A stretch of DNA of 40,823 nt, from IMG/VR virus record IMGVR_UViG_3300045988_137387; one strand, 5' to 3'. Position 1 is the first letter of the stretch. Every line of letters starts with the position of its first letter. This stretch comes from a virus. A program made the translations under genes and the position numbers. This document shows, one piece after another, positions 5,192 to 39,361 of this stretch. The notes below the pieces were generated by a model that saw nothing but the letters and a program-made list of their open reading frames with translations, was not told the DNA's origin and made no database searches.

Positions 5192-6289
5192 TTACTTCAA
5201 AATTTCAGCGATTTCCTGAGATAACTTTTCGTCGTTCACGAGGTCGTCGCTGGTCACAACGGTGTCTTTGCGGACGGTCAGCGCGTCGGTGGCGTCAAAG
5301 GCAAGGCCGTCGCCGATGCTGACGGCGATCGCGCCGCTTTCATCGCGTTTGAGGCCCTGCCCGATGGTCACATTGCCAGATGCATTGGAGCCACCTACTT
5401 TCCCGGAACCGTTCAGGGTAAGCGTCACATGGATGTCGGCCGCCGGAACACGCTGCGAGAAGAAACGGACAGAGCCGTCGCGGGTCTCACAGGCGTTGAG
5501 GACGCCGGCCCTCGCGGTCACGGCGAAGTCATTGACATCTGCGCCGCCGCTGGGGATAAGTGAGCTGTCGCTGTCAGCCAGCGCGGCATCGTAGATGTAC
5601 TGGTAGGGGCCGGTGTCCGGCAGGGGAGTCCAACCATCAGCGCGGAGGACGAGGCTGTACTCGCCGAAATACCCGCTGCCGCTGTGGGTCTGAATGAGCT
5701 TTTTGACCTGTGCTTCGGTCATGATCTGGCCGGACTCCTCGATGCGCTTTACCGCCGCACTGGCGGCAGCCTCGATGACCGAGGCGTGGGCGTTGGGGTC
5801 GGAGTCGTGCTGTTCCAGCTCTTTTTCGACCAGCTGCATGATGGCCTGCACCTGCGGCGATACGGTGACGCTGATGTTGGCGTTGTTGGAGACGGCCAGC
5901 AGGACGGCCAGCTCGATTTTGAAATCGCTGCTCGTGCTGGCGGCGGGGATCTCGACGCCCCGGTCATCCTGCACGACCATGAGCAGCGTTTCGTCCGGGC
6001 CGGTGTCCAGTTTGCCGTATACCCCCACCTGATGGCAGATGTAGGCTGTCTGCCCGGCTGTGATCTGGATGCTGACCCGCCGGGCGGGCTTGCCGTCGTT
6101 CTCCACAGTGTCGATGCCGAGGATGTCCACCTCGTGTGTCTCGCCACTGAGAGTGACGGCTTCTGCGAGGTCAGAGTCACTGGCCTCGGTGGCCGCCAGC
6201 GCACGGGTGATGATGAGTGCGCCGCCGGAGACCGACTCCGACAATAAGGCAGCGCCCGCGCGGGTATACGCGGCTTTTTCCCAGCTCAT
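5192..6289 (-). CDS. Putative tail fibre protein
   Basis: Start moved to the ATG at 6289, which forms an ATGA overlap with the stop of the upstream gene (MSWEKAAYTRAG...). The 571-aa track ORF has an Arg/Pro/His-rich junk extension that overlaps 6286-7005. Confidence 0.6.
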   Translation of the reverse strand: MSWEKAAYTRAGAALLSESVSGGALIITRALAATEASDSDLAEAVTLSGETHEVDILGIDTVENDGKPARRVSIQITAGQTAYICHQVGVYGKLDTGPDETLLMVVQDDRGVEIPAASTSSDFKIELAVLLAVSNNANISVTVSPQVQAIMQLVEKELEQHDSDPNAHASVIEAAASAAVKRIEESGQIMTEAQVKKLIQTHSGSGYFGEYSLVLRADGWTPLPDTGPYQYIYDAALADSDSSLIPSGGADVNDFAVTARAGVLNACETRDGSVRFFSQRVPAADIHVTLTLNGSGKVGGSNASGNVTIGQGLKRDESGAIAVSIGDGLAFDATDALTVRKDTVVTSDDLVNDEKLSQEIAEILK

Positions 6290-7005
6290 ATCGTTATTCC
6301 TCCAATCTTGATGGTGATGGTCTCGCAGGTGTTGGCCAGTCTGCTGCCTGCAAGGGCCGGCGCACTGACCGCTTTCGGGCCGATGACGCCGGGCAGAGCC
6401 ACGGTGGCCTGCACCCGGGTGCTGCTGGCTGCACTGACTGCATATGCCCGACCGGTGACTTCCTTCGGCCCGATGACGCCCGGGATGCGGACGGTGCAGG
6501 TGGTGACTGCGCTGCACGGGGCAGAGGCGGCGTAGGCTGTAAGATGTGCCTCTTCCAGATACGCGATGTACTGCAAAAACAGATTTTGCGGAGACATCGC
6601 GTCTACCAGCTCCATCGTGTCGGCATAGGTGTCCGTATAAGGCATCGTGACCCGAAGGGTATAGCTGTTTTCCGGGACTTCGGCGGCAGAAGAACCTACT
6701 CCGTAGATGTTGTTCAGTACATTCTGCAGCTGAGGCAGAGTATAGGGCAGCTGACGGTTCAGCGCGGTAAGAATGCGGATACGCCGGACATCGAGGCTGT
6801 CCGATGCCTTCGGAACAAGGGCGAGGATGTGCTCCCACCGGGCGAGACCGCGGTCTCCGGTAGTCAGAATGAAGAGGTCGTCCTGAAAAGCAGCGACACT
6901 GTCCCACAAAGCCGAGAATTCCGGCTGCTGCGATGCCATTGCCGCTTTGAATGCCGGAAGGTCACGGAGAATGAAGGGAAGATAGTTTATCAGCTGTCGT
7001 TCCAT
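6286..7005 (-). CDS. Baseplate/tail protein, XkdU/YmfQ-like (DUF2313-like)
   Basis: N-terminus LINYLPFILRDLPAFKAAM...LFILTTGDRGLARWE, and it sits immediately after the baseplate J gene. Confidence 0.6.
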   Translation of the reverse strand: MERQLINYLPFILRDLPAFKAAMASQQPEFSALWDSVAAFQDDLFILTTGDRGLARWEHILALVPKASDSLDVRRIRILTALNRQLPYTLPQLQNVLNNIYGVGSSAAEVPENSYTLRVTMPYTDTYADTMELVDAMSPQNLFLQYIAYLEEAHLTAYAASAPCSAVTTCTVRIPGVIGPKEVTGRAYAVSAASSTRVQATVALPGVIGPKAVSAPALAGSRLANTCETITIKIGGITI

Positions 7006-17326: not shown

Positions 17327-18247
17327 TTATGCCGGGGTGATCTCGAACCAGCCTTGGGTCTTGGGGTTGTCGCCCTCTGCGGGCTCCATCTTGACATAGC
17401 CGACGCCGGACTTGGCATAATAGCTCTTATCCTTGTTCACGGCGGTGTCGGTGGAGGCGACTGCAGTGCCGGTGATGATGCCGACGGCCTTGGTGGCGTC
17501 GGTCATGGCAGCGACGTAGTACTTGCGGCTGTAGATGGTGTTGCGGCGGATGTTCTCCTCGCGCTGCTGCTCCACCTCGGTGCCTTTCTTGTTGAAGAGA
17601 GTGACGGCCTTCTTGGTGGCGATGACCACCTTGCCGCTGGCGGCATCCTTCTTGGTGTAGAGGTTGATGCCGCCCACCGTGCCGATGTAGCCCTGCTTGG
17701 CGAAGGACTCCACATACTTCAGGTCATCCTTGAGGGCCTTGCGCAGCTTTGCCATCTCGGCAGGGTTGACGAAGCCGAAGATGCTCACGCCTTCCAGATC
17801 CTCGAGGTTCAGCATGGCAGCGGCGTCCACGAAGGCGTCGAAGCCCAGCGCAGGGGTCACGAGGGTAAGAGTAGCATCATTGAACGCGGTGTAGATGTCG
17901 GCGTTCTGGGTGTTGAACAGGTCAACGCCTGCATGGCGGGTGCCAGTGGTGACGACCATCGGGTCGGTCATGGCATCCTCGTCGAAATAGGAAAAGCGGT
18001 TCTGCGCCAGCAGGATCTTGTAACTCTTCTCGGTGAAGTCGGCCTCGATGGTCTTGGTGTTGCCCTCGCCCTTGGTCAGCTTCTCGGTGCCGTCGGTGGC
18101 CTTGTAGACGTGGACCTTGTAGTCCATGCCTGCCGTGCCGGTCAGGGAGTTATCGACGGTGCAGAACTGCACAAGGTCGAGGTGGGAGTTGTACTGGTCT
18201 TCGATCTCGTTGGCGAGAAAGAAATTGTCGTAGGTTTTGTTGGGCAT
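17327..18247 (-). CDS. Major capsid protein
   Basis: 306 aa, following the scaffold gene. N-terminus NKTYDNFFLANEIEDQY. The size fits the approximately 300-aa major capsid family found in Bacillota phages. Confidence 0.8.
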   Translation of the reverse strand: MPNKTYDNFFLANEIEDQYNSHLDLVQFCTVDNSLTGTAGMDYKVHVYKATDGTEKLTKGEGNTKTIEADFTEKSYKILLAQNRFSYFDEDAMTDPMVVTTGTRHAGVDLFNTQNADIYTAFNDATLTLVTPALGFDAFVDAAAMLNLEDLEGVSIFGFVNPAEMAKLRKALKDDLKYVESFAKQGYIGTVGGINLYTKKDAASGKVVIATKKAVTLFNKKGTEVEQQREENIRRNTIYSRKYYVAAMTDATKAVGIITGTAVASTDTAVNKDKSYYAKSGVGYVKMEPAEGDNPKTQGWFEITPA

Positions 18248-18882
18248 CAGGTAACACCTCCGTTGTAAAGAGCCCGGTACTCCTCAGGATGGTTGAGGGA
18301 GTAGGTGTGTCGTTCGGTGGCGCTCATGCCGCGCAGACGCTCAAGGGTCATGCCGTTGATGCCGGGAGGGTCACCCTTCTCGGCGGGCTTTGCACCCTTG
18401 AAGCCGCCCGCAGCAGCTTTCTCGAAGAGGAACGCCGTCTCTTCGTTCTCGGCCAGCTTCTTGACCTCGTCCGCAAGGCCCTTCACGGTGCCGTCGTCGG
18501 TCAGCTCTGCCTTGCTGATAAAGTCAGCCAGCAGGGCCTTGGCGGCGGTGTTGTTCTTGGCCTTGGCACCGGTCAGCGCCAGTTCCACGGCGTTGCTGAT
18601 CTTCAGCGCCTTGAGCTGGGCGGCATAGTCGGCGTCTTTCTGCTTGTTGTCGGCCTGAAGCTGGGTGATCTGGGCCTGAAGGGCAGCGGCGTCCACCTTT
18701 TTCAGCTCTTCCAGCTGCTTGTCCCGCTCGGAGAGGGCAGTGCGCGCAGCTTTCAGCTCGGTGTTGACCTCATTGAAACGGCTCTTGGTCACGAAATCGC
18801 CGTTCAGGCCGTCCATGACCTTGTCTGTCTGCTCTTCGGTCAGACCCATTGCCAGCAGGTCTTCTTTCTTCATATCATTCAC
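18247..18882 (-). CDS. Scaffolding protein (GP20-like)
   Basis: 211 aa, helical and charged. FVTKSRFNEVNTELKAAR...LQAQITQLQADNKQKDADYAAQLKALK matches the phage scaffold pattern. Confidence 0.75.
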   Translation of the reverse strand: MNDMKKEDLLAMGLTEEQTDKVMDGLNGDFVTKSRFNEVNTELKAARTALSERDKQLEELKKVDAAALQAQITQLQADNKQKDADYAAQLKALKISNAVELALTGAKAKNNTAAKALLADFISKAELTDDGTVKGLADEVKKLAENEETAFLFEKAAAGGFKGAKPAEKGDPPGINGMTLERLRGMSATERHTYSLNHPEEYRALYNGGVT

Positions 18883-18965: not shown

Positions 18966-19039
18966 TGGTGCCGCTTGCAGGAATCGAACCCGCGTCCGCT
19001 GATTACAAATCAGCAGCTCTGCCATTGAGCGAAAACGGC
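18966..19039 (-). tRNA. tRNA-Thr (anticodon UGU), phage-encoded
   Basis: The reverse complement folds canonically. Acceptor GCCGTTT/AAGCGGC; D arm GCTC-AATGGCA-GAGC; anticodon arm GCTGA-TTTGTAA-TCAGC; T arm GCGGG-TTCGATT-CCTGC; then A and CCA. 74 nt. Confidence 0.85.
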
Positions 19040-19041
19040 AT

Positions 19042-19073
19042 GAAAAAAGCGCCCTCGCCCGGAGGCAAAGACG
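19042..19073 (-). terminator. Possible weak intrinsic terminator upstream of the tRNA
   Basis: Minus strand reads GCGTCTTTGCCTCCGGGCGAGGGCGCTTTTTT. The stem is imperfect (one bulge) and a T6 tract follows. Confidence 0.35.
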
Positions 19074-19083
19074 CTTGCATGAT

Positions 19084-19224
19084 TCAGTTTTTCTTGCGAA
19101 CGAGCGATTTCAGCCACTCTTTCAAGTCAGAGAATGTCTTGAAAAGAATGGAGACCGTAATGACCAGCGCTGCGAAGGTCCAGCAGTACGCAAAGAAATA
19201 GAAAACGACAGGATGCAGCGCCAT
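19084..19224 (-). CDS. Small single-TM peptide (46 aa from the ATG; 54 aa if initiation is at ATA 19248)
   Basis: Manual translation: MALHPVVFYFFAYCWTFAALVITVSILFKTFSDLKEWLKSLVRKKN. A perfect AGGAGG (19254-19259) lies 5 nt before an in-frame ATA and 29 nt before the ATG. Confidence 0.4.
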   Translation of the reverse strand: MALHPVVFYFFAYCWTFAALVITVSILFKTFSDLKEWLKSLVRKKN

Positions 19225-19309
19225 GAGCCAGAATGTGAAAAGTTTTATGTTGTCCTCCTAAAAATGGGCAAAAGAAAACCACGGTGCGGTGTGCATCGTG
19301 GTGAATGAA

Positions 19310-19522
19310 TTATTCAATGCGGGGCGGCAGCTGGCCGATTCTCTTCAACGTGTCATAGTAGTTGCGGGAAAGCGACTGCTGAAGGACTGCAACGTCAAAT
19401 CCATCATATAAAGAGTCGCAAATGTCATCGTATTTGTGATCGATGGGATGCTCCGTCAACCATTTCTGCATTTTGGAGACCTCGGACTCTGAGTATGCCT
19501 CAGCGGTAGAATTTAATGCCAT
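19310..19522 (-). CDS. Hypothetical small acidic protein (70 aa; alternative start at 19471)
   Basis: The ORF overlaps the MuF stop by 23 nt. An alternative ATG at 19471 sits behind GAGG. Composition looks like real protein. Confidence 0.5.
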   Translation of the reverse strand: MALNSTAEAYSESEVSKMQKWLTEHPIDHKYDDICDSLYDGFDVAVLQQSLSRNYYDTLKRIGQLPPRIE

Positions 19523-21116
19523 GTGCTTCCAACTCCTTCAGGCTGCTCTCGACCAGCCCTGCCGCTCTGGTGAGTAAATCGGCGTCTGAGAGCTTTTTGC
19601 GCGGTGTATCAGCCATCACCAAAATCTGCTCATACAGCATTTTGATGATTTTATCAGCAGCGGCAAAATCGTAGGCCGAGGTCTTTTCAATCGCAAAAAT
19701 ATGACCGCTATGCCCAAGGGCGGTCATAAGTTTCAGATTCTCGTTTTTGATAAAACTTTTTAAGTCACCGTGCGAGAAAATGCCACTTGCCGGGTGCGTA
19801 TGTATGACGATATACGGGGTATCAAAGTTGGGCAGCTTAACAGAGTGTCCCTCTGCGTTGCCGGTAATATTACCAGTTAGCGGCTGCATATCCAAATCGA
19901 ACACTCTGCCAACCTCGACGCCGAGGGGCTGCTTGGACGCTTCCATCAGCAGCCGTTTGTGCGCATTTTGGAGCTGGCGCTGTTTGGCAGCGTCCAGAGT
20001 GTCGCAGTTAAAAGCTTTGACTTTTGCTATTGCCTGCATTGTAACAGGTTCCGGCTCGAGATTCAAGCTCTGGAAGGTGGAAACATCGGTTTTCTGTCTA
20101 CCCTTCCACTCCAGCCACTTCGTTCCCGCAGGCACATAATACTTTTCGCCATCCTCCCCGCGTGCAATGCGCAGTCCGTCGGCGAAGTCCTCCGGGATGA
20201 CGGGTGCGGTGGTGCAGCGGCAGCGGGGATGGAAAGGCGGCACGGTGACGCCCGGCTCATACTGGGCAAGAGGTATCTCTTTGCCGTCCAGCTGGCCGCA
20301 GATGCTGCAGGTGCTGCCGTCTAGAGTGCCGATGATCTCCACCTTCTCGACGCCCAAGTCCTTGAAGCCCTGCTTCTCGGCGAGGGCTCTGTAGTAGGCC
20401 GTCTCGGTGTAAACCAACCGCCCTGCCTTGTAGCGGTCAACGTCGAACTGTTTGGCGATAGCGTCGGTGAGCTGGGCCGGGGAGTCGCCCCGCAGCAGAC
20501 CCTGCGTCAGGCCCTTATGGACGGCCTGCACGAGGGCGTTCTTATTCGTCCAGCAGCGGTCGCGGAATGTGCGGTCGTCCGTCGTCCATGCCTTGGAGGT
20601 AAGGGCGTCCAGCTGGGTCTTGTCGAGGGAGACGGTTTTGAACTTCACGTCGAGGCCCTTGGTGGTTTCTCTCAGGGCGCCGGTGTAGGCGTCGGCTGCC
20701 GCCCGGCGTACAGCCTCTGTGAGCTGTGTTTCCTGCCCGGCATACAGTTCCTCTATCTGCTGGCGAATCTGCGTCTCCACGGCTTCCAGCCGGGAAATGT
20801 GGACTCTGGCGGAGGCGTTGCGCAGCTGGCGCTGCCACGTTTCATCCAGTCCGGCCTTCTGGGCTGTCTCTATGTACTTCGCCACGTCCCAGCGGAACTC
20901 TTCAAGCTCCTTCGTGCTCAGCAGACGCCGGGACTCGATGAGAGAAACACCGTTGTCGTCAGCGAAGCGGGCGCACCAGCTGTCCAGCTTTTTGCGGGTC
21001 TGGTACAGAGCCTGCCGGTACAGCGCTTCTATTTCCCGGAGTGCAGCCTGTGCGGTCTTGTAGGTGCTGCGTTCCAGCAGGGAGAAGCGCCCCCGCCAGT
21101 ATTCAGAGTTCTTCAC
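19500..21116 (-). CDS. Head morphogenesis protein (MuF / SPP1 gp7 family) with a C-terminal extension of about 190 aa
   Basis: The MuF hallmark PPFHPRCRCTTAPV is at aa 293-306. An extra domain spans aa 345-538 and contains E401 and H439-T-H-P-x5-S-x2-D451. Confidence 0.8.
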   Translation of the reverse strand: MKNSEYWRGRFSLLERSTYKTAQAALREIEALYRQALYQTRKKLDSWCARFADDNGVSLIESRRLLSTKELEEFRWDVAKYIETAQKAGLDETWQRQLRNASARVHISRLEAVETQIRQQIEELYAGQETQLTEAVRRAAADAYTGALRETTKGLDVKFKTVSLDKTQLDALTSKAWTTDDRTFRDRCWTNKNALVQAVHKGLTQGLLRGDSPAQLTDAIAKQFDVDRYKAGRLVYTETAYYRALAEKQGFKDLGVEKVEIIGTLDGSTCSICGQLDGKEIPLAQYEPGVTVPPFHPRCRCTTAPVIPEDFADGLRIARGEDGEKYYVPAGTKWLEWKGRQKTDVSTFQSLNLEPEPVTMQAIAKVKAFNCDTLDAAKQRQLQNAHKRLLMEASKQPLGVEVGRVFDLDMQPLTGNITGNAEGHSVKLPNFDTPYIVIHTHPASGIFSHGDLKSFIKNENLKLMTALGHSGHIFAIEKTSAYDFAAADKIIKMLYEQILVMADTPRKKLSDADLLTRAAGLVESSLKELEAHGIKFYR

Positions 21117-21134: not shown

Positions 21135-22580
21135 TTATGTATTGAAGGTAGTGGGTGTATAGCTGTCCTGAGCCTGTGCGGCCTTTTCTTCCGCCAGACG
21201 GGCAAGCTCGGTCTGGGCGTCCGTTACCCACGGATGCTGCTCAACGATGGTCCGGTTGGAGAGCAGCCCCACCGAGTTGCGGCAGTTGGTGATGCTCTCC
21301 GTCTCGTTGATGAGCATATCGCGGTTGAACACGATGGTGACAGGGACATCCTCGAAATCGCCCTTGCCCCGGTTGACGAGGTCTTTGTTGATGAACCAGA
21401 GCAGGTCTTCGAAGGCGGCCTGAAATTCGGTCTCCATGCCGTTTGCATCGAGGTCGATGTCAGCGTACATACTCTGGATGTTCATCTGGTTGGGATTACC
21501 GGAGAGACGGTCATCCTTGGCGTCGTAGCTCTTGGCGTTCTCGATGAGGGCCTTTTTCAGCAGGTCGAGGATGGCTTTGTAGTTGTCGGAGTTGACCTCG
21601 ACGGTCAGTTTTTCCACGCCGCCATCATCCCGCACCTTGACCGCGCCGTAGGCCGAAAGGTTTTCCCGGAACTTCCCCAGGTCCTCACCGTCGTAGTTGC
21701 GCAGGATGAGGATGGTGTTCCGGGCATCCTCCTGCATATTGTTCGTGAAGTCGGAGAGCAGGGTGTTGATGGCGTCCTGCAGGCACTTGACCCGCTGGAT
21801 GAGCGGGAGCTCCTGCTTGTTGTACTTGAAGGGGATGAGCGGGATGCGCTCCCAGTTATAGCCGGTGTCAGGCCCATCCGGCCCGGGACCGGTAAAATAT
21901 GTTTCGTACTCTCCGGCAACAGTGTCCGGCAGCAGCATATCGTTCTGAAAGATGTAGCGGTGGATGCCGTCCTTTCTGAACAACTCCACCTTTTCGACGG
22001 TCTCTTTTGTGTAGCCGTTCCAGACCTCCTGCGTGTAGAGCCGGGCGGCGCAGTCCAGCCGGGTATGGTCATCGTCAGCCCAGAAGGGCAGCACCTCGTA
22101 TCCGGAAAAGCGCTTGAATGCCAGATGGCCGTCTTCGCCATAGTAGGGGTAAAGCCAGGCCAGACCGTTGTTCAGTGCGTCTTCGGCCAGATATTTCAGC
22201 TGCCGGAAGAAGCCGCGGTTGAAGTATCCCGCCAGCAGGTCGGAATAGGTCTGGTCTTCGCAGCTCACCGTGAAAGGCTTGCCCACAAAGTAATTCACCT
22301 TCTGGTCAACGGCCTTCGCATACTGGTTGTCGATGAGCTTGTTGTTGGGCAGATTCTTCACCGGCACAAGATTGCCGTCCCGCCCGATGGCCATCCGCTG
22401 GCGATTCAGGATCTCATGCCGGCCCTCGTAGTAGTCGGAGCCTTTTATCTGCGTCCTGCGCTTTGGGCTGGCTTTCCATTCTTTGATTTCCGCGGCAAAC
22501 TGATTCTCTGTCATGCAGGTGGCACGCTGGACGATGAGACGGTTGATCTTCTCCATCACGCCGTTCACGATAAGATTCAT
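21135..22580 (-). CDS. Portal protein (SPP1 gp6-like)
   Basis: 481 aa, between terL and MuF. Size and order are canonical. Confidence 0.8.
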   Translation of the reverse strand: MNLIVNGVMEKINRLIVQRATCMTENQFAAEIKEWKASPKRRTQIKGSDYYEGRHEILNRQRMAIGRDGNLVPVKNLPNNKLIDNQYAKAVDQKVNYFVGKPFTVSCEDQTYSDLLAGYFNRGFFRQLKYLAEDALNNGLAWLYPYYGEDGHLAFKRFSGYEVLPFWADDDHTRLDCAARLYTQEVWNGYTKETVEKVELFRKDGIHRYIFQNDMLLPDTVAGEYETYFTGPGPDGPDTGYNWERIPLIPFKYNKQELPLIQRVKCLQDAINTLLSDFTNNMQEDARNTILILRNYDGEDLGKFRENLSAYGAVKVRDDGGVEKLTVEVNSDNYKAILDLLKKALIENAKSYDAKDDRLSGNPNQMNIQSMYADIDLDANGMETEFQAAFEDLLWFINKDLVNRGKGDFEDVPVTIVFNRDMLINETESITNCRNSVGLLSNRTIVEQHPWVTDAQTELARLAEEKAAQAQDSYTPTTFNT

Positions 22581-22591
22581 AGATGTACCTC

Positions 22592-23863
22592 TCAGTCAAA
22601 GCTGTATGTCGGTCCGCACTGGATGTCCTCCATCGCGTATCGCATGGCGTCCATCAGGTGGTTGAAGTCGTCGATGGGTTTTCCGGTCTTGTTGCCGAAC
22701 TTATCCTTGGCCCATGTGTAGTTTGAAATTTCGGTCAGGAAATTCACGCAGCGGGGATGTACCACAATACGGAAGTTCTGGATGTACTGGATGCCGCTGC
22801 GGATGGAGTCTGGGCCTTTGCCCGCCGGGCGGATGCGGCGAAGACCCTCTTCCCGCAGCTCATCGAGGCTCTTCGGCTCGGCGCTGTCGCCCCGGATGCG
22901 CTCCTTGGCGTATCCCATGCCGTAAATGCGCTGGTAGATGGCCCGGTTGGTCAACCCGCGTTCATAAAGCTCATCGAACACCCAAATGGTCATCTCCTTT
23001 TCGCTCACCAGCCCGCAGAAGAATGCGGTCGGGTCGTTGGTGTAACCGAAATCAAGGCCGAATGCACTCTTGACGTCCGGCCTTGCCGCTATGATGGTCT
23101 TGTCGAAGGCTTCCTCCACCCAGTTTTCGAACACCAGACCGTCCACGATGCCCCATTCGCCCAGACCGGCGACGCTGTAGCGGCGGGGGTTCTGAACCTT
23201 CATCCGCTCAAACACCCGGCGGTCGGCATCGTCGAGCCATTCGTTGCAGGTGTAGTTCGTGGTCAGCGCCAGAGTATCGGGGTCGGGGGTGTCAAAAAAG
23301 CGGGCTTTGAGCCAGTGGTGCTCGTTCCACGGGTTGAAGGTCAGTGTGATCTGCTTGAACAGCCCCGTCTCGGGTGGGATAGCGCCACGAACAGACTCGT
23401 CTATCATGTTGAAATCGGCTTCGGAGCTGATTTCATATGCCTCCTCTATCCACGCCCAGCACAGATACCCGTGCTCGGCCGCGATGGACGTGACCTTGAG
23501 CGGGTCATCCAGACCACGGAACAGGATCTTCTGTCTAGTGGGCTTGTAGGTCAGTTCAAGGGGGCTTTCCTTCACGTCCCAGAACGCCTGCACACCGAGG
23601 CGGCTGATAGCCCATTTCAGGTCGGTGAAACAGGAGTCGTGCAGGGTGCGGTACACCTTGCGGATGACCAGCAGGTTCGCCTGCGGGTATCTCATCAGGT
23701 TGACGATGTACCACAGCGCGGTGGTCTTGGACTTCTTCGAGGCACGAGAGCCTTTGCAGACCCGATAGCGGCCTTTGAACCGCCAGAAGGTGCCGTAGCC
23801 CTGGCCGACGATGTCCGGCAGGTGGAGCTGGCTTGCGCGGGGGTCAGTCAACAAGCTGTTCAT
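22592..23863 (-). CDS. terL: Terminase large subunit (PBSX-type)
   Basis: 423 aa. It has a Walker A-like GSRASKKSKTT and a C-terminal nuclease-like region, and it follows terS. Confidence 0.85.
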   Translation of the reverse strand: MNSLLTDPRASQLHLPDIVGQGYGTFWRFKGRYRVCKGSRASKKSKTTALWYIVNLMRYPQANLLVIRKVYRTLHDSCFTDLKWAISRLGVQAFWDVKESPLELTYKPTRQKILFRGLDDPLKVTSIAAEHGYLCWAWIEEAYEISSEADFNMIDESVRGAIPPETGLFKQITLTFNPWNEHHWLKARFFDTPDPDTLALTTNYTCNEWLDDADRRVFERMKVQNPRRYSVAGLGEWGIVDGLVFENWVEEAFDKTIIAARPDVKSAFGLDFGYTNDPTAFFCGLVSEKEMTIWVFDELYERGLTNRAIYQRIYGMGYAKERIRGDSAEPKSLDELREEGLRRIRPAGKGPDSIRSGIQYIQNFRIVVHPRCVNFLTEISNYTWAKDKFGNKTGKPIDDFNHLMDAMRYAMEDIQCGPTYSFD

Positions 23864-31234: not shown

Positions 31235-32559
31235 CAGAAAGCTCCTTTCGTCCATGTTCTGGTCTGCGTGGGTGCGGCGGACAGGACAGGCAGGTCAGCA
31301 CCCTTGACCATGCCGTCCTCAATGATGATCTGGCACTCGCTGCCGGTGGAGACGCGGGTGGCGATGGCCTGCAGGCCCTCCGCTTCGAGCCAGTGTCCGA
31401 ACTCTTCCAGCGTGGTCATGTCCATCTGCTCGAGCTTGTCCAGAAGGACAAAGCCGCAGTCCGGGTTGAGCCGCCGGACGATGGCCGCGGCCACCCGGAG
31501 CTGGTCGCTGCCGGACATATCCCGCCAGCGCTTGCCTTTATAAGTAAGAGCGCCGTCCTCCACACTCAGCTCCGGCAGGGGCAGGTCGGCACCGTTCAGC
31601 AGGGCCAGACGCTCTTTGCGCTTCTGCTCGATGGCATCCGTAAGCTTGTCGTAGTCGCTGGCGTACTTGGCGGCTTCGTCCTCGGCGCGGGCTTTTTCGA
31701 GGTTGACCCGGACTTTCCGGTTCGTCTCCTCAATGCTCTGGATAGAGGCTTCCAGTTCGGCAGTGGATCCGTCCTGAAGCTGGTCAACGGTCTTTTCTGC
31801 ATTTTTTCGCTGGTTGAACAGCTTGGTGTGCTTGGTGTCCAGCTCTTCCCGCAGCTTTTCCAGTTCCTCAATGCGCTCACGGGTGCGTTTCAGTTCGTCC
31901 AGACACTGTTGTTCCTGCCGGGCCAACTCCTGCGCCTGCTGCCGCAGACGCTGATTCTCCCCGTTCCGGGCCAGAATATCCTGCTGCTGGCGGATAAGGT
32001 CAGAGGCGCTGAGAGGCTGTTCGGGAGCATCGGGGTAGGAGATAAGCTCGTCGGCAAAGTTCTTTTTCTGCTGGGCCAGCTGGCCGGTGAAGGTGCGCTT
32101 GTCGTAGATGCTTTTGATCTCCATATCCCGGAGATGCAATTCATTCCCGATGCCGATGATACGCAGCAGGATGTCAGCCTTTTCCTTGTCGCTGGCCTCC
32201 ATGAAGCGGGGCAGATCGAGGGCCAGCGGCTCGACAAAAGCATTCAGCAGCTGCTGGCCGCTGCGGCGGCCGGTGGGGTCGGTGACGGTGAGGCTGCTGT
32301 TCTTGCCCTTGCGCTCCACAACGACCCCGTTGGAGAGAGTGACGCGGAGGTGGGCGGGAGCGACGGCACCATCCCGCTGGGCGGCGTTCGGGCGGAATTT
32401 TTCGCCGCCAAGCGCCCATGCCAGCGCGTCGAGAACGCTGGTCTTGCCCTGATTGTTGTTGCCGCCTACGAGGGTGAGACCGGTGGGCGCAGGAGTGAGC
32501 GCAACGGCCTTGATGCGCTTGACGTTTTCGGCCTCGAGGGCCGTGATCTTTACAGACAT
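31234..32559 (-). CDS. SbcC/Rad50-like AAA ATPase with a coiled-coil insert
   Basis: N-terminus LEAENVKRIKAV...GGNNNQGKTSVLDALAWALGG, a long coiled coil, then a Walker B-like FVLLDKLE. The C-terminal tail reads AAPTQTRTWTKGAF. Confidence 0.7.
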   Translation of the reverse strand: MSVKITALEAENVKRIKAVALTPAPTGLTLVGGNNNQGKTSVLDALAWALGGEKFRPNAAQRDGAVAPAHLRVTLSNGVVVERKGKNSSLTVTDPTGRRSGQQLLNAFVEPLALDLPRFMEASDKEKADILLRIIGIGNELHLRDMEIKSIYDKRTFTGQLAQQKKNFADELISYPDAPEQPLSASDLIRQQQDILARNGENQRLRQQAQELARQEQQCLDELKRTRERIEELEKLREELDTKHTKLFNQRKNAEKTVDQLQDGSTAELEASIQSIEETNRKVRVNLEKARAEDEAAKYASDYDKLTDAIEQKRKERLALLNGADLPLPELSVEDGALTYKGKRWRDMSGSDQLRVAAAIVRRLNPDCGFVLLDKLEQMDMTTLEEFGHWLEAEGLQAIATRVSTGSECQIIIEDGMVKGADLPVLSAAPTQTRTWTKGAF

Positions 32560-34292
32560 CTGGATACCTCCCCTTGAATCTGTCCTAATGTGCGTACGAA
32601 CTGATCGATCGCGTTTTCCCGCTGTTCACCCGGCAGCTTGCCGAACAGCGGCTTTATGGACTGCGCGAGATTTGTGATGGAGCGGCCGGCCAGAAGGATG
32701 CTGTCGTAGGCGTCGCGGGCGTCCTGCTCCTGTGTGGCTTTGTAATCGGCGGTCATGCCGTCGGCCATTTCCTTGGCCTGCCGGACGACTTCGTCCTTGT
32801 CCACCACAGCTACGATGGGCTGCTTCCGGGCGGCTTCGGCCTCGGATCTCCACTTGTCGGCGTGACGCTTGGCCGCTTCGGCTACCTGACGGGAGCCTTC
32901 CAGCTGGCTCTCGGCGGTTTTGGCACGCTGCTCGGCCTTGGTCTGCATCTTCCATGCTTCCTCTTCCCGGGCTTCGGCGGCGTCTAACCGGCTTTTGAGC
33001 TGATCGTTCTGTTCGGTCAGACCTTTAATGTCGGCGTGGGCGGCTTCCAGCTGAGCATTGGCGGTGTTCATTGCGTCCCGCGACTCCTGCTCCTGAATGC
33101 AGGCGCTCTTCAATCTGGCCTGCGTTTCGTTCAGCTTGTACTCTTTGGCCTTGAGCTGGGCTAAAAGCTCCTGCACCCGCTGGCTGTCTCCGGCGGCTTC
33201 GACCAGCTGCCCAGCGCAGCCGCTGCGGGCGATGAGGTTCAAATCTTTGCGGGTCAGCTCGGGCAGCTGTTTTAATTCCGCCAAGTTGGCGGAATTAAAA
33301 GCTTCGCCGTTCTGAATCATCCGCCGGACGCTTCCTTCGCCTAACCCCTTGCTCTCATACCACTTTGTCCATGTACCGCCGCCATACCGGCCGGCCTTGG
33401 CAGTCAGAGCGTGGATCCGGGCGAGGTAGATGCAGGAAATCAGATACTCGTCCTGCGCTGCGCCATAGTGCAGATCAAACTGCTGATCGGCGTCTGCGGC
33501 CTGCTGGGACAAATCGCCCAGAGCGGAGAAGTCAAAGGTGGGGACAGCTGCGGATGCAAAAGAAGTCTCCGCAGGAACAACAGGGGCCGATGCGCTGCTC
33601 TGCGGGGACAGCGCGGGGGTCAAGCCGTTTGCAGCCGCCTCGCTCGCCGAGGTGGTCGGTATTGCCGCCGCCGAACTGCTGGCAGCAGGGCTTGTCATGG
33701 TCGCAGCAGCATCCGCATTCTGGGCAGGTGTACATGAGAAAATCTCCTTTGCTTTTTTGATGTCAGCAAGAATCTTTTCCATTTCCTGCTGCGGTGTCAT
33801 GTCCTTGCGGCTTCCATCCGGATCGAAAAAGCGGGCGAACAAAGCTGCCTTGGCAGCAATGCCCTTTTTGTTGGAAGCGCAGACGAATGTACAGCAGTAG
33901 CGGCCATTGTGGGAGTAATCAGTGGGGCGAATCTCGTCTTGAGAAAAGCCGCCAGTGAGTTCGCCCAGAGGGAAAGTATCTTTGACCCATGCACTGATCT
34001 GTTCCAGGAAGCCGAAATCCAGGCTGACCACAGAGCAGGTGCATTTGTCTTTGGTCGAGCCGATAAAGTGGGAGTCATATGAGAGCGTTCTGCTCGTCCG
34101 ACATTCGTAGCCCTTAATATCCTGCACGAAACGCTTGGCAGCCTCGTCCCACTTGTTGCCGCCCCACGGCATGGCGTAGGGACAGCCATAGCATTCATGG
34201 CCCGGACCATATCCTTCCAGACGATTGCCGGTATTGTCGGCGCTGCCGGATTTCTGCACTCTCTGCCCACACTTGCAGATATAGGTAGTCAC
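32550..34292 (-). CDS. Large early protein: Cys-rich N-terminal domain, low-complexity linker, DUF3102-like region, coiled coil
   Basis: 580 aa. The N-terminus has CxC and CxxC clusters. The central part WTKWYESKGLGEGSVRRMIQNGEAF resembles DUF3102. The C-terminal 200 aa are a heptad-rich coiled coil. Confidence 0.55.
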   Translation of the reverse strand: MTTYICKCGQRVQKSGSADNTGNRLEGYGPGHECYGCPYAMPWGGNKWDEAAKRFVQDIKGYECRTSRTLSYDSHFIGSTKDKCTCSVVSLDFGFLEQISAWVKDTFPLGELTGGFSQDEIRPTDYSHNGRYCCTFVCASNKKGIAAKAALFARFFDPDGSRKDMTPQQEMEKILADIKKAKEIFSCTPAQNADAAATMTSPAASSSAAAIPTTSASEAAANGLTPALSPQSSASAPVVPAETSFASAAVPTFDFSALGDLSQQAADADQQFDLHYGAAQDEYLISCIYLARIHALTAKAGRYGGGTWTKWYESKGLGEGSVRRMIQNGEAFNSANLAELKQLPELTRKDLNLIARSGCAGQLVEAAGDSQRVQELLAQLKAKEYKLNETQARLKSACIQEQESRDAMNTANAQLEAAHADIKGLTEQNDQLKSRLDAAEAREEEAWKMQTKAEQRAKTAESQLEGSRQVAEAAKRHADKWRSEAEAARKQPIVAVVDKDEVVRQAKEMADGMTADYKATQEQDARDAYDSILLAGRSITNLAQSIKPLFGKLPGEQRENAIDQFVRTLGQIQGEVSRCL

Positions 34293-36692: not shown

Positions 36693-36838
36693 GTTACTCG
36701 GTTTGAGTAACTGTAATTATGATATACCCAAAATGAGTAAATGTAAAGTAAAATAATACCCAAATTGAACAGTGGCTTTTTGTGGATACTGCCCAATTCG
36801 GGTATTTTTGTTGACTATTTACTCAAAACGTGTAATAT
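36693..36838. promoter_or_regulatory. Divergent lysis-lysogeny promoters with two families of operator-like repeats
   Basis: Minus promoter: TTTACA (rc of 36742-36747), 17-nt spacer, TATCAT (rc of 36719-36724). Plus promoter: TTGACT (36811-36816), 16-nt spacer, TAATAT (36833-36838). TGAGTAA half-sites: palindrome 36693-36711, then 36734-36741 and 36819-36825. ATACCCAAA(A/T)TG at 36724-36735 and 36756-36767, and inverted at 36794-36805. Confidence 0.65.
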
Positions 36839-36869
36839 AATATACATAGGGAAGAAGGAGGTAACGATT

Positions 36870-37580
36870 ATGAACCGAATCCCTGAACTCCGAAAAGAAC
36901 GCGGCATCAGCATGAAGCAGGCAGCGGAACAGCTCGGGATGCCTTATACGACGTATGTCAACTACGAGAAAGGTGTCCGGCAACCGAATTCCGAAACACT
37001 GATCGACCTTGCCAATTTTTACAATACATCCATTGACTACATGCTTGGAAAAAGTAACAATCGCATTGATGAGCATACTTTGGATGTGGTGAACGAGATT
37101 GATCAGGACATTCTGGAGAAAGCCGGAAACATCAAAGAAGCATTACGACTGCAGGCCAAAAGGGATGCTGAGACGGTTCCTCCCGGTTTCCAGCCCATGC
37201 CAGCCATGGACGTGGTACCGCTGGTGGGCCGGATCGCCTGCGGTACGCCAATCACGGCAGAAGAGAACATCGAGCAAATGGTGTGCGTCCCCTCCAAGTG
37301 GCGCTCTACGTTTACGTTGACCTGCAAGGGGGACAGCATGGAACCCCGCATCCACGACGGCGATCTGGTGGCCATCCGCAAACAGCCAGAGGTTGAAAAT
37401 GGCGAGATCGCAGCGGTGCGGATCAATGGTGAGGCCACCCTGAAGCACGTCTACCTCCACGACAGCTTCATTGAGCTGCGGCCGGAGAATCCGGCTTTCA
37501 ACAGCATCATCCTCAGCCGGGAGGACATGAACACGGTCGTAATCGAAGGCAAGGCCGTCGGGCTTTGCCGGGACATATAA
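36870..37580 (+). CDS. CI/LexA-like repressor (XRE HTH plus S24 peptidase)
   Basis: Start moved to the ATG at 36870 behind GAAGGAGG. The HTH is ISMKQAAEQLGMPYTTYVNYEKG. VGRIACGTPI is a candidate Cys-Gly cleavage site. GDSMEP supplies the Ser, and ATLKHV the Lys. Confidence 0.85.
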   Translation: MNRIPELRKERGISMKQAAEQLGMPYTTYVNYEKGVRQPNSETLIDLANFYNTSIDYMLGKSNNRIDEHTLDVVNEIDQDILEKAGNIKEALRLQAKRDAETVPPGFQPMPAMDVVPLVGRIACGTPITAEENIEQMVCVPSKWRSTFTLTCKGDSMEPRIHDGDLVAIRKQPEVENGEIAAVRINGEATLKHVYLHDSFIELRPENPAFNSIILSREDMNTVVIEGKAVGLCRDI

Positions 37581-37601: not shown

Positions 37602-39215
37602 ATGGCAAAATGTACCCGGTGCGGGAAAAAGGGTATTTTCCTTAAATTGACAAACGGCCTTTGTGATAATTGCGCTTTGGAGGTTTGGAAGGAAAAGGAA
37701 AGAGCTTCAATGGAAGCTCAGTATGCACAGCAACGAGTGGAGCAGCAAGCTCAGCTGGAAAAAGAGCGGGCAGATATGCAGCTTCAGATGAAGAAGGAGC
37801 AGGCGGCTCTTCAAACTCAGCTCGATGCAATGGCGGCCGAATTGTCAGATCAGAAAGCATTATTTGCACAGATCTCCGCAGAGGCTTACGCCGAGAGTAC
37901 GTCGAGAGCCGAAGCGGAGAACGAAAAACTGAAGGCTCAGAGTCTCCAGCTACAGTCGTGCGTTGATACGACAAAGAAAAATCTTTTGGAACTTCTTACA
38001 AAAGAAGAAAATTATCGACGCAGTGTAGCAAATGCAGAGCAGAAGGTACGTCGCAGCAAAGAGCTGGTCAAGGCTATCCAACACGCAAGCGAGGACTTTG
38101 GGATTAAAGAGGAAGACAAAAATGTTGAACGGCTTTTGAGAACTGCCGATGAACTGATGAGTCCGACCGTAAGTCTGCCTCTCCAGTGCCTCGGTATGAA
38201 AGATCTTCGAAAGCGGTACAAGGAAAACGAAAAGAATATTCAAGCAACATTTGAAAAATATAAAGACCGCTATACAACGAAAGCAAATATTGCAATTTAT
38301 CGCTTGATGGTCATTGCACTGTCGGCGGAGCTTCAAAATGTGCTGCATAACATTGTTTTTGGAAAGCTGGATGATGCGCTGAGCAATATCAAGGCACTTA
38401 CAAATAAATATTATGTTATTGCGGCAGATGGCAACCAGAGCATTGCGCCGACAGTCAAAAAATTCGTTGGTGAGTTGGATTATTATTTTCAAGAAGCCGT
38501 GAAAATAGAATATGAATATTATGTCCAGAGGGAGCGTGCGAAAGAAGAACAGCGTGCCATCCGTGAGCAGATGCGGCAGGAGGCTGAGGAACGCCGCGAG
38601 TTGGAGCGTCAGCAGAAACAGATAGAAAAGGAAGAAAGCAAGTTTCACGACCAGATCAGCCAGTTGTCCCAGCAGATAGAAGTCTCCGCAGACGATGAAA
38701 AAACTGCCCTGCTGAAAGCCCGCATCGAAGAGTTGCAAAAACAGCTTGCCGCGGTGGCTGACCAGAAAGACAAAATCGTTGAGCTGCAAAATGGCAAGGC
38801 TGGCAATGTCTACGTCATCAGCAATATTGGCTCTTTTGGTGAGAATGTGTTCAAAATCGGTATGACACGCCGTCTCGAGCCTATGGAGCGTGTGAATGAA
38901 CTGGGCAGTGCCAGTGTGCCGTTCCCATTTGATGTACATTCCATGATTTTTTCCGATGATGCAGTGGGTCTCGAGACGAAGTTGCACCATCTTCTCAACG
39001 ACCAGCGCGTGAACAAAGTGAATTTGCGCAAGGAATTTTTCCGTATCTCGCTGGATGACCTTGAGAAGTTGGTGGGTGAAATCGCACCCACTGCGGAATT
39101 CAAACGCACTTTTCTGGCTGAGCAGTACCGTCAGAGCCTGTCGATTTCTCATGTATCGGATGAGGCAGAGGAAGCTGTTTCAGATGACGATGAAGAAGAG
39201 GAGCTTGCGGAATAA
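37602..39215 (+). CDS. Zinc-ribbon / coiled-coil / DUF4041-like / T5orf172 (GIY-YIG-superfamily-like) protein; candidate prophage defence gene
   Basis: 537 aa. N-terminal C4-x2-C7-x13-C21-x2-C24, then a coiled coil of about 130 aa. The C-terminus GNVYVISNIGSFGENVFKIGMTRRLEPMERVNELGSASVPFPFDVH...LHHLLNDQRVN...EFFRISL matches the T5orf172 pattern. It ends in an acidic tail. The gene lies 21 nt downstream of the repressor on the same strand and looks AT-richer than its surroundings. Confidence 0.7.
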   Translation: MAKCTRCGKKGIFLKLTNGLCDNCALEVWKEKERASMEAQYAQQRVEQQAQLEKERADMQLQMKKEQAALQTQLDAMAAELSDQKALFAQISAEAYAESTSRAEAENEKLKAQSLQLQSCVDTTKKNLLELLTKEENYRRSVANAEQKVRRSKELVKAIQHASEDFGIKEEDKNVERLLRTADELMSPTVSLPLQCLGMKDLRKRYKENEKNIQATFEKYKDRYTTKANIAIYRLMVIALSAELQNVLHNIVFGKLDDALSNIKALTNKYYVIAADGNQSIAPTVKKFVGELDYYFQEAVKIEYEYYVQRERAKEEQRAIREQMRQEAEERRELERQQKQIEKEESKFHDQISQLSQQIEVSADDEKTALLKARIEELQKQLAAVADQKDKIVELQNGKAGNVYVISNIGSFGENVFKIGMTRRLEPMERVNELGSASVPFPFDVHSMIFSDDAVGLETKLHHLLNDQRVNKVNLRKEFFRISLDDLEKLVGEIAPTAEFKRTFLAEQYRQSLSISHVSDEAEEAVSDDDEEEELAE

Positions 39216-39255: not shown

Positions 39256-39361
39256 TAAGATAAGCGGCTCGCCCTTGCGGGGTCATCGCACACCTAAGCA
39301 CTGCGATTATACCTCTTTTGGGCGGGCTTGTCAAAGTGTACCCATATGGAGGTGTATTTTT

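Follow-up and report, generated by a model that had tools for sequence, protein, structure and literature searches.

An exchangeable C-terminal domain, probably a remote relative of JAB/MPN proteins, on the MuF head protein of a temperate Faecalibacterium prausnitzii phage

The head module and its extended MuF protein

The window, the whole stretch of 40,823 nucleotides of viral DNA analysed here (IMG/VR record IMGVR_UViG_3300045988_137387), comes from a temperate prophage, the host of which is Faecalibacterium prausnitzii. The late operon runs terminase, portal, MuF, scaffold, capsid, and an integrase and a CI-like repressor are encoded elsewhere in the window. The locus contains the following features:

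22592–23863: terminase, in head-module gene order
21135–22580: SPP1-type portal, directly followed by the MuF gene
19500–21116, minus strand: MuF open reading frame (ORF), 538 aa, an SPP1-gp7/MuF minor head protein
20091–21116, minus strand: MuF core, aa 1–342, with a PPFHPRCRC motif and a conserved YYVPAGTKWLEWK tail
19500–20090, minus strand: C-terminal extension, aa 343–538, the proposed catalytic cargo, made up of a short linker (SLNLEPEPVTMQ) and, after it, a divergent RadC/JAB-like domain about 180 aa long
19914–19916, minus strand: codon for E401, predicted to be catalytic
19764–19802, minus strand: codons for H439-T-H441-P-A-S-G-I-F-S448-H-G-D451, predicted metal-binding motif
19310–19522, minus strand: small partner ORF, 70 aa, or 53 aa from an alternative start at 19471
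19254–19302, minus strand: hairpin, U-run and ribosome-binding site, conserved and non-coding, forming the 3' boundary of the cassette
19084–19248, minus strand: basic peptide with a single transmembrane segment, 54 codons, or 46 aa from an internal ATG
19047–19076, minus strand: intrinsic terminator-like hairpin, in a backbone context
18966–19039, minus strand: tRNA-Thr(TGT), after the 19047–19076 hairpin and upstream of the scaffold gene
18247–18882: scaffold, the next head gene after MuF
17327–18247: capsid, after the scaffold

Phage_Mu_F (PF04233, Pfam) covers aa 198–303 of the MuF protein (E 1.4e-13; 52 bits, the cut-off being 29.6), TIGR01641 (NCBIfam) covers aa 199–307 (75.8 bits against a cut-off of 39.65) and PHROG 115, “minor head protein”, is confined to aa 1–344; PPFHPRCRCTTAP lies at aa 293–305. 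Given that all three models stop within aa 1–344, the 195 or so C-terminal residues are truly extra, and the initial annotation, which had described a MuF core with a long C-terminal extension, was right in every coordinate and residue. Within the capsid, proteins of the SPP1-gp7/MuF family are packaged at the portal, and they exit with the DNA. The G+C content forms a trough over the extension and the small ORFs, at about 0.45–0.49, versus about 0.62–0.645 in the MuF core.

The extension and its JAB-like motif

The extension carries E-V-G at aa 401–403 and HTHPASGIFSHGD at aa 439–451, in the form E401...H439-x-H441-x6-S448-x2-D451. It has no match in Pfam, NCBIfam or PDB sequences, and no annotated PHROG model. 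A family profile built mainly on the extension domain matched about 1,900 clusters (1,929) at 50% identity, almost all of them metagenomic, and representatives were drawn from the best 150 of these 1,929 matches. Among 124 representatives with 21–63% identity to the window domain, H439, H441 and D451 (H97, H99 and D109 when numbered within the extension) never vary, and at least 90% keep E401, P442 and F447 (E59, P100 and F105). The JAMM/MPN-like signature noticed initially, with a spacer one residue short, is a constant of the family: six residues separate H-x-H from [S/T]-x-x-D in every motif-bearing sequence, with Ser in 109 and Thr in 21 of 136, the others being one sequence in which the C-terminal part of the motif is altered and five that are fragments or have no motif. 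An AF2 model of the extension (pLDDT 89.7) has the element order helix-E-strand-strand-strand(HxH)-helix(SxxD)-hairpin, which fits the JAB core.

There is only remote support for a relationship between the extension and JAB/MPN proteins, with RadC as the nearest detectable clade. An hhalign comparison with a RadC JAB profile (a 10-sequence alignment) gave Prob 92.4, P 5e-7 and a score of 44.8, with only 52 columns aligned, and shuffled controls reached a score of at most 24.1 in 30 shuffles; with the single YicR sequence, 15 columns were aligned. Pfam Prok-JAB matched 19 of 40 close members weakly, always below the cut-off (best E 0.0018) and over the motif region only. At E <= 10, neither PF04002 (RadC) nor DUF4329 (Tox-JAB-2) matched the window domain or any of the 40 close members; in the 124 representatives, the 25 families found most often at E <= 0.1 (best 25 of 75) do not include PF04002. 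The top five Foldseek matches in the PDB were all JAB/MPN proteins (CSN5, BubCD, RadC, CSN6), with non-significant E values of 0.05–0.97 and TM scores of 0.23–0.33, and the first BFVD matches outside the family were JAB-type proteins. BubCD has a JAB peptidase as its N-terminal domain (bioRxiv 10.1101/2024.11.21.623953). The conditions proposed at the outset for refuting the reading of a JAB/MPN-like, exchangeable extension were examined, and none of them refutes it. A search of PDB sequences with the family profile returned only designed helical repeats, which matched the C-terminal helices, and these hits were rejected.

In its consensus, the family shares with the RadC clade (E. coli YicR, YkfG and YeeS, phage or plasmid RadC, and the RadC of polyvalent proteins, PMC5512222) the signature E...HNHPSG...[S/T]xxD, and the profile match (Prob 92%) covers strands 2–4 and the motif. 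Both are associated with mobile elements and with proteins for which delivery alongside incoming DNA is proposed. The present family differs from RadC in that the spacer from HxH to S is shorter by a residue and the RadC helix before the HxH strand is missing, and in adding an N-terminal helical part (with a conserved AHKxLL) and two long C-terminal helices; it is fused to MuF, min_cap2 or portal proteins, whereas RadC is fused to HhH, ArdC or helicase modules. Like Tox-JAB-2, an H[ST]H-bearing domain catalogued in caudoviruses, it would be a C-terminal conflict cargo of the JAB superfamily with a dedicated downstream partner gene. However, Tox-JAB-2 rides on RHS, T6SS and T7SS carriers rather than head proteins, and its immunity partners are Imm65 and Imm-NTF2-2, not short all-helical proteins of 53–71 aa. 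The JAMM/MPN+ isopeptidases (Rpn11, CSN5, AfJAMM, Cap3, BilC, BubC) follow the same motif logic (Glu, HxH, Ser, Asp) and element order and are the best, albeit non-significant, structural neighbours, but their spacer is x7, as opposed to x6 here; no ubiquitin-like, E1 or E2 gene lies nearby, and the 70-aa neighbour is helical, not beta-grasp.

The domain ends no more than 20 residues from the C-terminus in 134 of 136 representatives. Its carriers are Phage_min_cap2 (47), Phage_Mu_F (29), VG15 (2), portal (1) and an LPD3 polyvalent protein (1). The families recurring in more than one of the 124 representatives, among the best 25 of 75 families, are Phage_min_cap2, Phage_Mu_F and VG15.

A cassette exchanged together with its small gene

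MuF cores with 82–99% identity over aa 1–342 bear different C-termini after ...YYVPAGTKWxEWK. These include the same JAB-like domain, a mosaic JAB-like domain and a far-diverged one, together with a variant sharing only the JAB-type motif (IHNHGTNVPPSGAD) and two HExxH domains. The motif-only variant (P0098) matches the family at the motif alone, with a Prob of 2.8%, and is left unassigned. At least five cargo types are found on these cores, and two more, Gln_amidase (papain-like) and PBECR domains, are found on MuF homologues at 56% identity. The breakpoints lie at MuF aa ~334–345 and just past the first small ORF, such that they bracket the extension and the small ORF; blastn matches end at 20117, 20081 or 19876 on the MuF side, and identity resumes at 19348 or 19301 on the far side. 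The domain and its partner together make up a cassette some 0.8 kb long (~20117–19302) that is exchanged by recombination, the homology arms being the conserved tail of the MuF core on the 5' side and the conserved hairpin element on the 3' side. The initial expectation that the C-terminus is swapped as a cassette with the downstream ORF is borne out.

There is a 23-nt overlap between the small ORF and the MuF stop. The ORF encodes an acidic protein (pI 4.8, 12 D+E versus 7 K+R), modelled by AF2 as three helices at low confidence (pLDDT 62). Of 80 viral loci, 79 have a homologue directly downstream of the domain and the remaining one is cut by the locus end, such that the ORF is present at all 79 informative loci, and the overlap with the upstream gene is 8–23 nt in most of them. 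Unrelated ORFs take its place where the cargo type differs. The peptide is constant while its codons vary synonymously, as judged from clear synonymous variants only. The 70-aa protein covaries more tightly with the domain's catalytic half (rho 0.44 versus 0.16), a difference confounded by physical adjacency. A word-indexed search with this ORF recovered only nine relatives. The acidic ORF overlapping the MuF stop, already suspected to be a cognate small gene, is thus linked to the domain at every informative locus and changes with the cargo. A promoter-like site at 20066–20038 was considered and dropped, as two such sites were found where 0.9 were expected, which is within chance.

The hairpin at 19254–19302 is present in 68 loci, with 97–100% identity among the best matches listed. 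All nine stem pairs are kept in 40 unique sequences, with G:C to C:G swaps in both directions, and the folding z-score is −3.2; no Rfam family matches the element. It is the only segment common to the window and locus L006 between 20117 and 19050, and it is terminator- or attenuator-like.

The hydrophobic transmembrane peptide (GRAVY 0.79) does exist, although its upstream start is ATA in the window instead of ATG, but it cannot be counted as the second cassette gene that it had been taken for. It is nearly identical beside different cargos (L003 and L005) and is found in only 5 of the 80 viral loci bearing the domain, and blastn identity to relatives picks up again upstream of it, at 19348 or 19301. 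The peptide is a phage backbone gene outside the cassette. A tRNA-Thr(TGT) is found in the same position in locus L002.

Proposed function and alternative readings

Temperate phages are known to encode MuF toxins and effectors (PMC5576092, PMC3482391), and virion-delivered polyvalent effectors include RadC-type JAB domains (PMC5512222). The MuF polymorphic toxins resemble the locus described here in having a PF04233 core, a swapped enzymatic C-terminus and a co-varying downstream gene in a temperate Bacillota phage. However, JAB, DUF4329 and RadC are absent from the domains given in the accessible part of Jamet et al. 2017 (PMC5576092), and, in the representatives scanned, the present family was found on phage head proteins only and was not shared with bacterial secretion-system toxins. 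The cargo family is, thus, new within a known layout of phage-delivered effectors.

We consider it slightly better than an even chance that the MuF protein carries a virion-delivered zinc-hydrolase effector accompanied by a cognate partner. The MuF core (aa 1 to ~342) would be packaged at the portal and leave with the DNA, and aa ~360–538, a divergent JAB/MPN domain with an intact metal-site motif, would act as a Zn-dependent hydrolase. This hydrolase would enter the newly infected cell and there act, at an early stage, on a macromolecule of the host. Its target seems somewhat likelier to be a protein or an isopeptide than nucleic acid, because most of the neighbouring cargos are of the peptidase type (two HExxH and one papain-like), but this preference is weak, given that no biochemical activity is established for the RadC clade. 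In the producing cell, the translationally coupled 70-aa protein may keep the enzyme harmless or foldable; it is a putative inhibitor, immunity protein or chaperone, probably cognate to the domain. The position of the small ORF in the late operon fits a chaperone or inhibitor acting in the producer cell better than immunity of the lysogen.

A more specific version of the zinc-hydrolase proposal would have a capsid-delivered isopeptidase, a ready-made anti-defence enzyme in the virion, stripping or processing ubiquitin-like (or other isopeptide or peptide) conjugates produced by host defences of the Bil, Bub or CBASS-Cap2 type, with the 70-aa protein as a reversible inhibitor until packaging. 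This version seems quite improbable. It has no direct support, since the nearest clade is RadC, the members of which have, to our knowledge, no established role as ubiquitin-like peptidases. A search of the literature on RadC/JAB anti-defence functions or phage-encoded JAMM enzymes yielded nothing relevant.

The alternative that survives best, although we consider it rather unlikely, is that the domain is a nuclease or another enzyme processing nucleic acids or nucleotides, acting on host or incoming DNA or RNA. Among the remote matches, only that to the RadC clade is significant, and the family has a RadC-like consensus, IHNHPSG; RadC and Tox-JAB domains have been argued to lack the ubiquitin-tail groove and, maybe, to be nucleases (PMC3482391, PMC5512222). 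PBECR RNase domains also occupy this position in MuF homologues at 56% identity, but the closest prophages carry HExxH domains and the Gln_amidase seen at 56% identity has a papain fold. The nuclease proposal for RadC-type JAB domains itself appears to draw on context, and we know of no nuclease activity shown for them. In addition, a helix specific to RadC, lying between strands 3 and 4, is missing from the domain and shows up as a gap in the hhalign alignment.

It is unlikely that the locus encodes a polymorphic toxin–immunity pair, with particles killing non-lysogenic competitors and the 70-aa protein protecting lysogens. Polymorphism of a C-terminal cassette with a co-varying small gene is the hallmark of polymorphic toxins (PMC5576092, PMC3482391), and a copy of the domain and small ORF detached from any head gene (L001) resembles the silent cassettes of such toxin systems. 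Nevertheless, among the best 25 of 75 families in the 124 representatives, the recurrent Pfam partners include no toxin-export N-terminal domain, and LXG, RHS and CdiA-type toxin-delivery carriers are not among them. Being shared with toxin-export systems is one hallmark of true polymorphic toxin domains. The small ORF is coupled to a late structural gene, with no separate promoter evident, and its expression in lysogens is doubtful on account of this translational coupling and the absence of an evident promoter of its own. Of the initial description of “immunity” genes, the co-inheritance of the 70-aa ORF stands, whereas the immunity role is conjectural.

It is very unlikely that the extension is an MPN-like module that binds without catalysing, or that the resemblance of its motif is due to chance. 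The spacer falls one residue short of the canonical JAMM form, the first motif His is replaced by Tyr in one cluster (P0058) and the fold matches are not significant; but all four positions of the motif vary little or not at all in the 124 representatives, with unchanged spacing, and such constancy at 21–63% identity is what would be expected of an active site rather than of a pseudoenzyme or a chance match. The idea that the extension serves head assembly or maturation, as a prohead or scaffold protease or by self-processing, is barely tenable. The label “head maturation protease” is given to MuF homologues by PHROG 595 and in some RefSeq records, and there is no separate prohead protease gene from portal to capsid. 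However, these labels match the MuF core alone (aa 4–343), and SPP1-type heads do not need a protease. Prophages with 83–97% identical portal, scaffold and capsid DNA have unrelated HExxH C-termini, and Gln_amidase or PBECR cargos are found in relatives that share the gene order but are more distant, such that a capsid of this type must be able to assemble without the JAB-like domain.

The zinc-hydrolase effector that we favour belongs to a large cargo family as yet without a model, with about 1,900 clusters, a conserved JAB-type site, a partner and clear recombination boundaries, and the cassette constitutes a clean natural case of effector swapping among almost identical prophages. MuF-fused cargos are presumed to enter the cell with the phage DNA, and a catalogue of them would indicate which host processes a phage attacks first; the domain and the 70-aa protein, as a compact pair, could reveal the role of RadC-like JAB domains, a long-standing question. 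Faecalibacterium, in whose prophages the family is present, is a key commensal of the human gut. A scan of species genomes with strict patterns identified six loci, two of which lie in Bacteroidales bins and may be mis-binned, and the domain also occurs as a shorter, separate ORF.

The MuF gene and its prophage setting

The window represents a temperate siphovirus-type prophage, the genes of which are read on the minus strand, and Faecalibacterium prausnitzii genomes contain near-identical copies of it. Replication genes are present, and the late genes include a tape measure and a holin gene downstream of the capsid gene.

Main features of the prophage
39275–40552: integrase
36765–37580: CI/LexA-like repressor
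22592–23863: terminase, late genes
21135–22580: SPP1-type portal, late genes
19500–21116 (-): MuF gene with extension, between portal and scaffold
18247–18882: scaffold, late genes
17327–18247: capsid, late genes

The 538-aa MuF product matches Phage_Mu_F (aa 198–303, E 1.4e-13, Pfam), TIGR01641 and, over aa 1–344 only, PHROG 115 'minor head protein'. SPP1 gp7 and the MuF proteins are packaged at the portal site and are thought to exit with the DNA (PMC5576092; PMC5512222). The initial annotation described a JAMM/MPN-like extension followed by two small ORFs, and its residues are exact, with PPFHPRCRCTTAP at aa 293–305, E401, and H439-T-H-P-A-S-G-I-F-S448-H-G-D451. The 70-aa ORF (19310–19522, -), with an acidic product (pI 4.8), has a 23-nt overlap with the MuF stop, and the hydrophobic peptide exists at 19084–19248 (-). 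G+C content falls to about 0.45–0.49 over the extension and both small ORFs, versus about 0.62–0.645 in the MuF core (aa 1–342). PHROG 595 and several RefSeq phage records name homologues of this core 'head maturation protease'; the match covers aa 4–343 only and not the extension, so the label is unrelated to the JAB-like part and there is a risk that automatic annotation could mislead.

A JAB-like domain family carried by head proteins

The extension alone (aa ~343–538) has no match in Pfam, NCBIfam or PDB sequences. A word-indexed search found 59 relatives, and an exhaustive profile search 1,929 clusters (50% identity) at E <= 1e-3, a few of which may stem from the upstream linker and head-protein columns included in the profile; 732 clusters matched at E <= 1e-10. 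In 134 of 136 diverse representatives, drawn from the best 150 of the 1,929 matches, the domain ends at most 20 residues from the C-terminus. It is preceded by more than 200 residues in 62 of the 136, stands alone in 39 and follows a short N-terminal extension in 35, at least some of these being fragments or frameshifted fusions (e.g. in comparison locus L002). On the N-terminal side, the partners that recur are virion head proteins, namely Phage_min_cap2 (47), Phage_Mu_F (29) and VG15 (2); a portal and an LPD3 polyvalent protein are each fused to the domain once. Among the representatives scanned, the domain is associated near-exclusively with virion head proteins. It was matched in a single one of 50,697 deposited phage genome records (tblastn), and 13 structural relatives in BFVD, from uncultured gut phages, either bear the name 'minor capsid proteins' or lack one.

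In L002 (4883–6642), the min_cap2 gene (348 aa) and the domain (220 aa) are separate ORFs, the intervening ~50 nt being linker sequence that is in frame in fused homologues; a frameshift or an error of assembly could account for this, as could a genuine split or a programmed one. Locus L001 (531–1998) has a copy of the domain and its small ORF away from any head gene, starting inside the linker and preceded by an ORF with an NPPF methyltransferase-like motif. This detached copy, in a protein cluster of 130 member sequences (P0002), might represent a donor cassette that stands by itself or the remnant of a prophage.

Across the family, the consensus reads IHNHPSGxxF[S/T]xxD. H439, H441 and D451 are invariant in 124 representatives that are 21–63% identical to the window, and conservation of E401, P442 and F447 is 90% or higher. 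The shortened spacer between HxH and [S/T]xxD that had been noticed in the window (six residues, the JAMM canonical value being seven) recurs in every motif-bearing sequence (109 with Ser, 21 with Thr), and is therefore a family trait rather than a local accident. Judged from these alignments, motif conservation is of active-site grade.

A 58-sequence alignment of the domain was compared, profile to profile (hhalign), with one that combined E. coli YicR and nine RadC proteins from phages. The match (Prob 92.4%, P 5e-7, score 44.8) spans strands 2–4 and the motif; 30 column-shuffled controls scored at most 24.1 and the reversed control 15.0. Prok-JAB is the commonest weak Pfam match (19 of 40 close members, best E 0.0018, motif region only). 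The AF2 model of the extension (pLDDT 89.7, pTM 0.86) has a long helix, E401, three strands, the last ending in HTH, a loop, a helix from S448 and a beta hairpin, an order that we take to be that of the JAB core, as in AfJAMM and RadC. Foldseek found no significant match to this model in the PDB; the five best matches, non-significant (E 0.05–0.97, TM-scores 0.23–0.33), are all JAB/MPN proteins: CSN5 (twice), BubCD, RadC 2QLC and CSN6. BubCD's N-terminal domain is a JAB peptidase (bioRxiv 10.1101/2024.11.21.623953). The first BFVD matches that are not family members are annotated as a '26S proteasome regulatory subunit' (crAss-like) and a 'deubiquitination hydrolase'. Because these lines of evidence agree, the extension is probably a divergent JAB-superfamily domain with RadC as its nearest relative, a remote but consistent assignment; it lies outside the Pfam RadC, Prok-JAB and DUF4329 families as now modelled. 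The proposed JAMM/MPN resemblance finds remote support in the profile match; no PDB fold match is significant.

Exchange of the extension with its partner ORF

MuF proteins that are 82–99% identical over aa 1–342 diverge abruptly after ...YYVPAGTKWxEWK and carry various C-termini.

C-terminal parts on near-identical MuF cores
P0060, P0093: same JAB-like domain
P0063/P0066 (541 aa): mosaic JAB-like version, second half different
P0079: far-diverged homologue, IHSHPTGTSFSLGD, hhalign Prob 97.4 to the family
P0098 (L008 1120–2733): JAB-type motif only, IHNHGTNVPPSGAD, x6 spacer; similarity to the family not significant
P0095 and P0097 (L006 4001–5683): two different HExxH domains (HEFIH, HEMHH), no matching Pfam model

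At 56% identity, MuF homologues bear Gln_amidase (papain fold) or PBECR2/3 RNase domains. Identity of the DNA of loci L003 and L004 to the window is 96.7% down to 19876, absent over 19875–19349, and 93.9% (L003) and 96.5% (L004) from 19348 onward. With L005, identity ends at 20081 and returns at 19301; with L006, it ends at 20117 and returns at 19050, apart from a 49-nt island (19302–19254). Since these breakpoints flank the extension and the first small ORF, the two together are the unit exchanged.

The downstream ORFs differ in this respect. In 79 of 80 IMG/VR loci, the domain is followed immediately by a homologue of the first, with an overlap of 8–23 nt in most; in the remaining locus, the locus end cuts it off. 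These homologues (53–71 aa) share the pattern ..TPExIxxMQxxLLxHPIDxxYDxxC...R..Y..LK..G.LPPgIE, and differing DNA encodes the same peptide block, so the protein is under purifying selection. Where the cargo is of another type, unrelated small ORFs take its place (53 aa in L005, 60 aa in L006, 72 aa in L009, 40 aa in L008). The JAB-like domain is thus linked obligately to a small helical acidic protein. Its AF2 model, of low confidence, is all-helical, so the protein does not have a ubiquitin-like beta-grasp fold. Divergence of the small ORF correlates with that of the catalytic and C-terminal domain part (rho 0.44) versus 0.16 for the N-terminal part, with adjacency as a confounder. The second ORF, the TM peptide, is a backbone gene rather than a partner, because it hardly changes beside different cargos (L003, L005) and is found with the domain at only 5 of 80 loci. 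Its start codon (54 codons; 19246–19248, -) is ATA in the window, 7 nt 3' of an AGGAGG RBS, and ATG in L005 and L003; the peptide may be poorly translated, or start at an internal ATG to give 46 aa.

Directly 3' of the first small ORF lies a conserved element of ~45 nt, in which an interrupted hairpin of 9 bp is accompanied by a U-run, GCCCAUUUUU and the RBS of the following gene.

Boundary element
19302–19254 (-): window copy
L001 2012–2055
L003 5833–5877
L005 5012–5053
L006 5872–5919

It occurs in 68 fetched loci, its best matches being 97–100% identical where neighbouring proteins are only 40–65% identical. All nine pairs are held in 40 unique sequences, with G:C to C:G swaps at two pairs in 16 of the 40, and the fold beats all 200 shuffles (z = -3.2); no Rfam family matches it. 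In a second hairpin, according to prediction, the U-tract is paired with the RBS. The element coincides with the 3' recombination breakpoints, and we interpret it as a signal of terminator or attenuator type that doubles as the 3' homology arm, with the conserved MuF-core end as the 5' arm.

Possible function, and other features of the window

MuF polymorphic toxins are a known layout (Jamet 2017, PMC5576092; Zhang 2012, PMC3482391), as are polyvalent effectors delivered by virions, RadC JAB domains among them (Iyer 2017, PMC5512222). Toxin modules made of JAB domains have likewise been described (Tox-JAB-1 and Tox-JAB-2; Zhang 2012, PMC3482391). The layout is common to the MuF toxins (Jamet 2017; Zhang 2012), whereas the cargo family here is JAB-like with an x6 spacer; JAB, RadC and DUF4329 are not mentioned among MuF cargos in the accessible main text and supplements of Jamet 2017 (PMC5576092). 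What is new is this family, with its x6 spacer, no existing model and head-protein fusions as recurrent carriers, together with its own small partner family and conserved boundary hairpin.

In the favoured reading, the domain would be brought into the infected cell as a Zn hydrolase, the small protein restraining it or aiding its folding in the producer cell. For such a delivered hydrolase, a protein or isopeptide substrate is tentatively favoured, because most other cargos found at this site are of peptidase type. Action against a ubiquitin-like defence, as suggested initially, would be a more speculative possibility. A nucleic-acid target is less likely, but the affinity to RadC speaks for it, as does the nuclease activity proposed in print for RadC and Tox-JAB domains (PMC3482391; PMC5512222). 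The reading as a strict killer toxin with lysogen immunity is weakened by the coupling of the small ORF to a late gene and by the lack of a bacterial toxin-export carrier among the recurrent Pfam partners listed. The invariant motif makes a pseudoenzyme unlikely, and a role in head assembly is very unlikely, since prophages with 83–97% identical head-gene DNA bear unrelated cargos.

Between the MuF cassette and the scaffold gene, mid late operon, a strong terminator-like hairpin is followed by a tRNA-Thr(TGT) (18966–19076, -); a tRNA lies at the matching position in an unrelated min_cap2-type phage (L002 7338–7425, 75% identical). Two long ORFs, of 580 aa in the replication region (32550–34292, -) and 571 aa in the tail region (5192–6907, -), match no Pfam family at E <= 1e-3. 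Between the CI-like repressor and integrase genes, a 537-aa gene of low G+C content (0.46–0.52; 37602–39215, +) encodes a C-terminal T5orf172/MUG113 (GIY-YIG-like) domain, and may be a lysogeny-expressed moron or defence gene.
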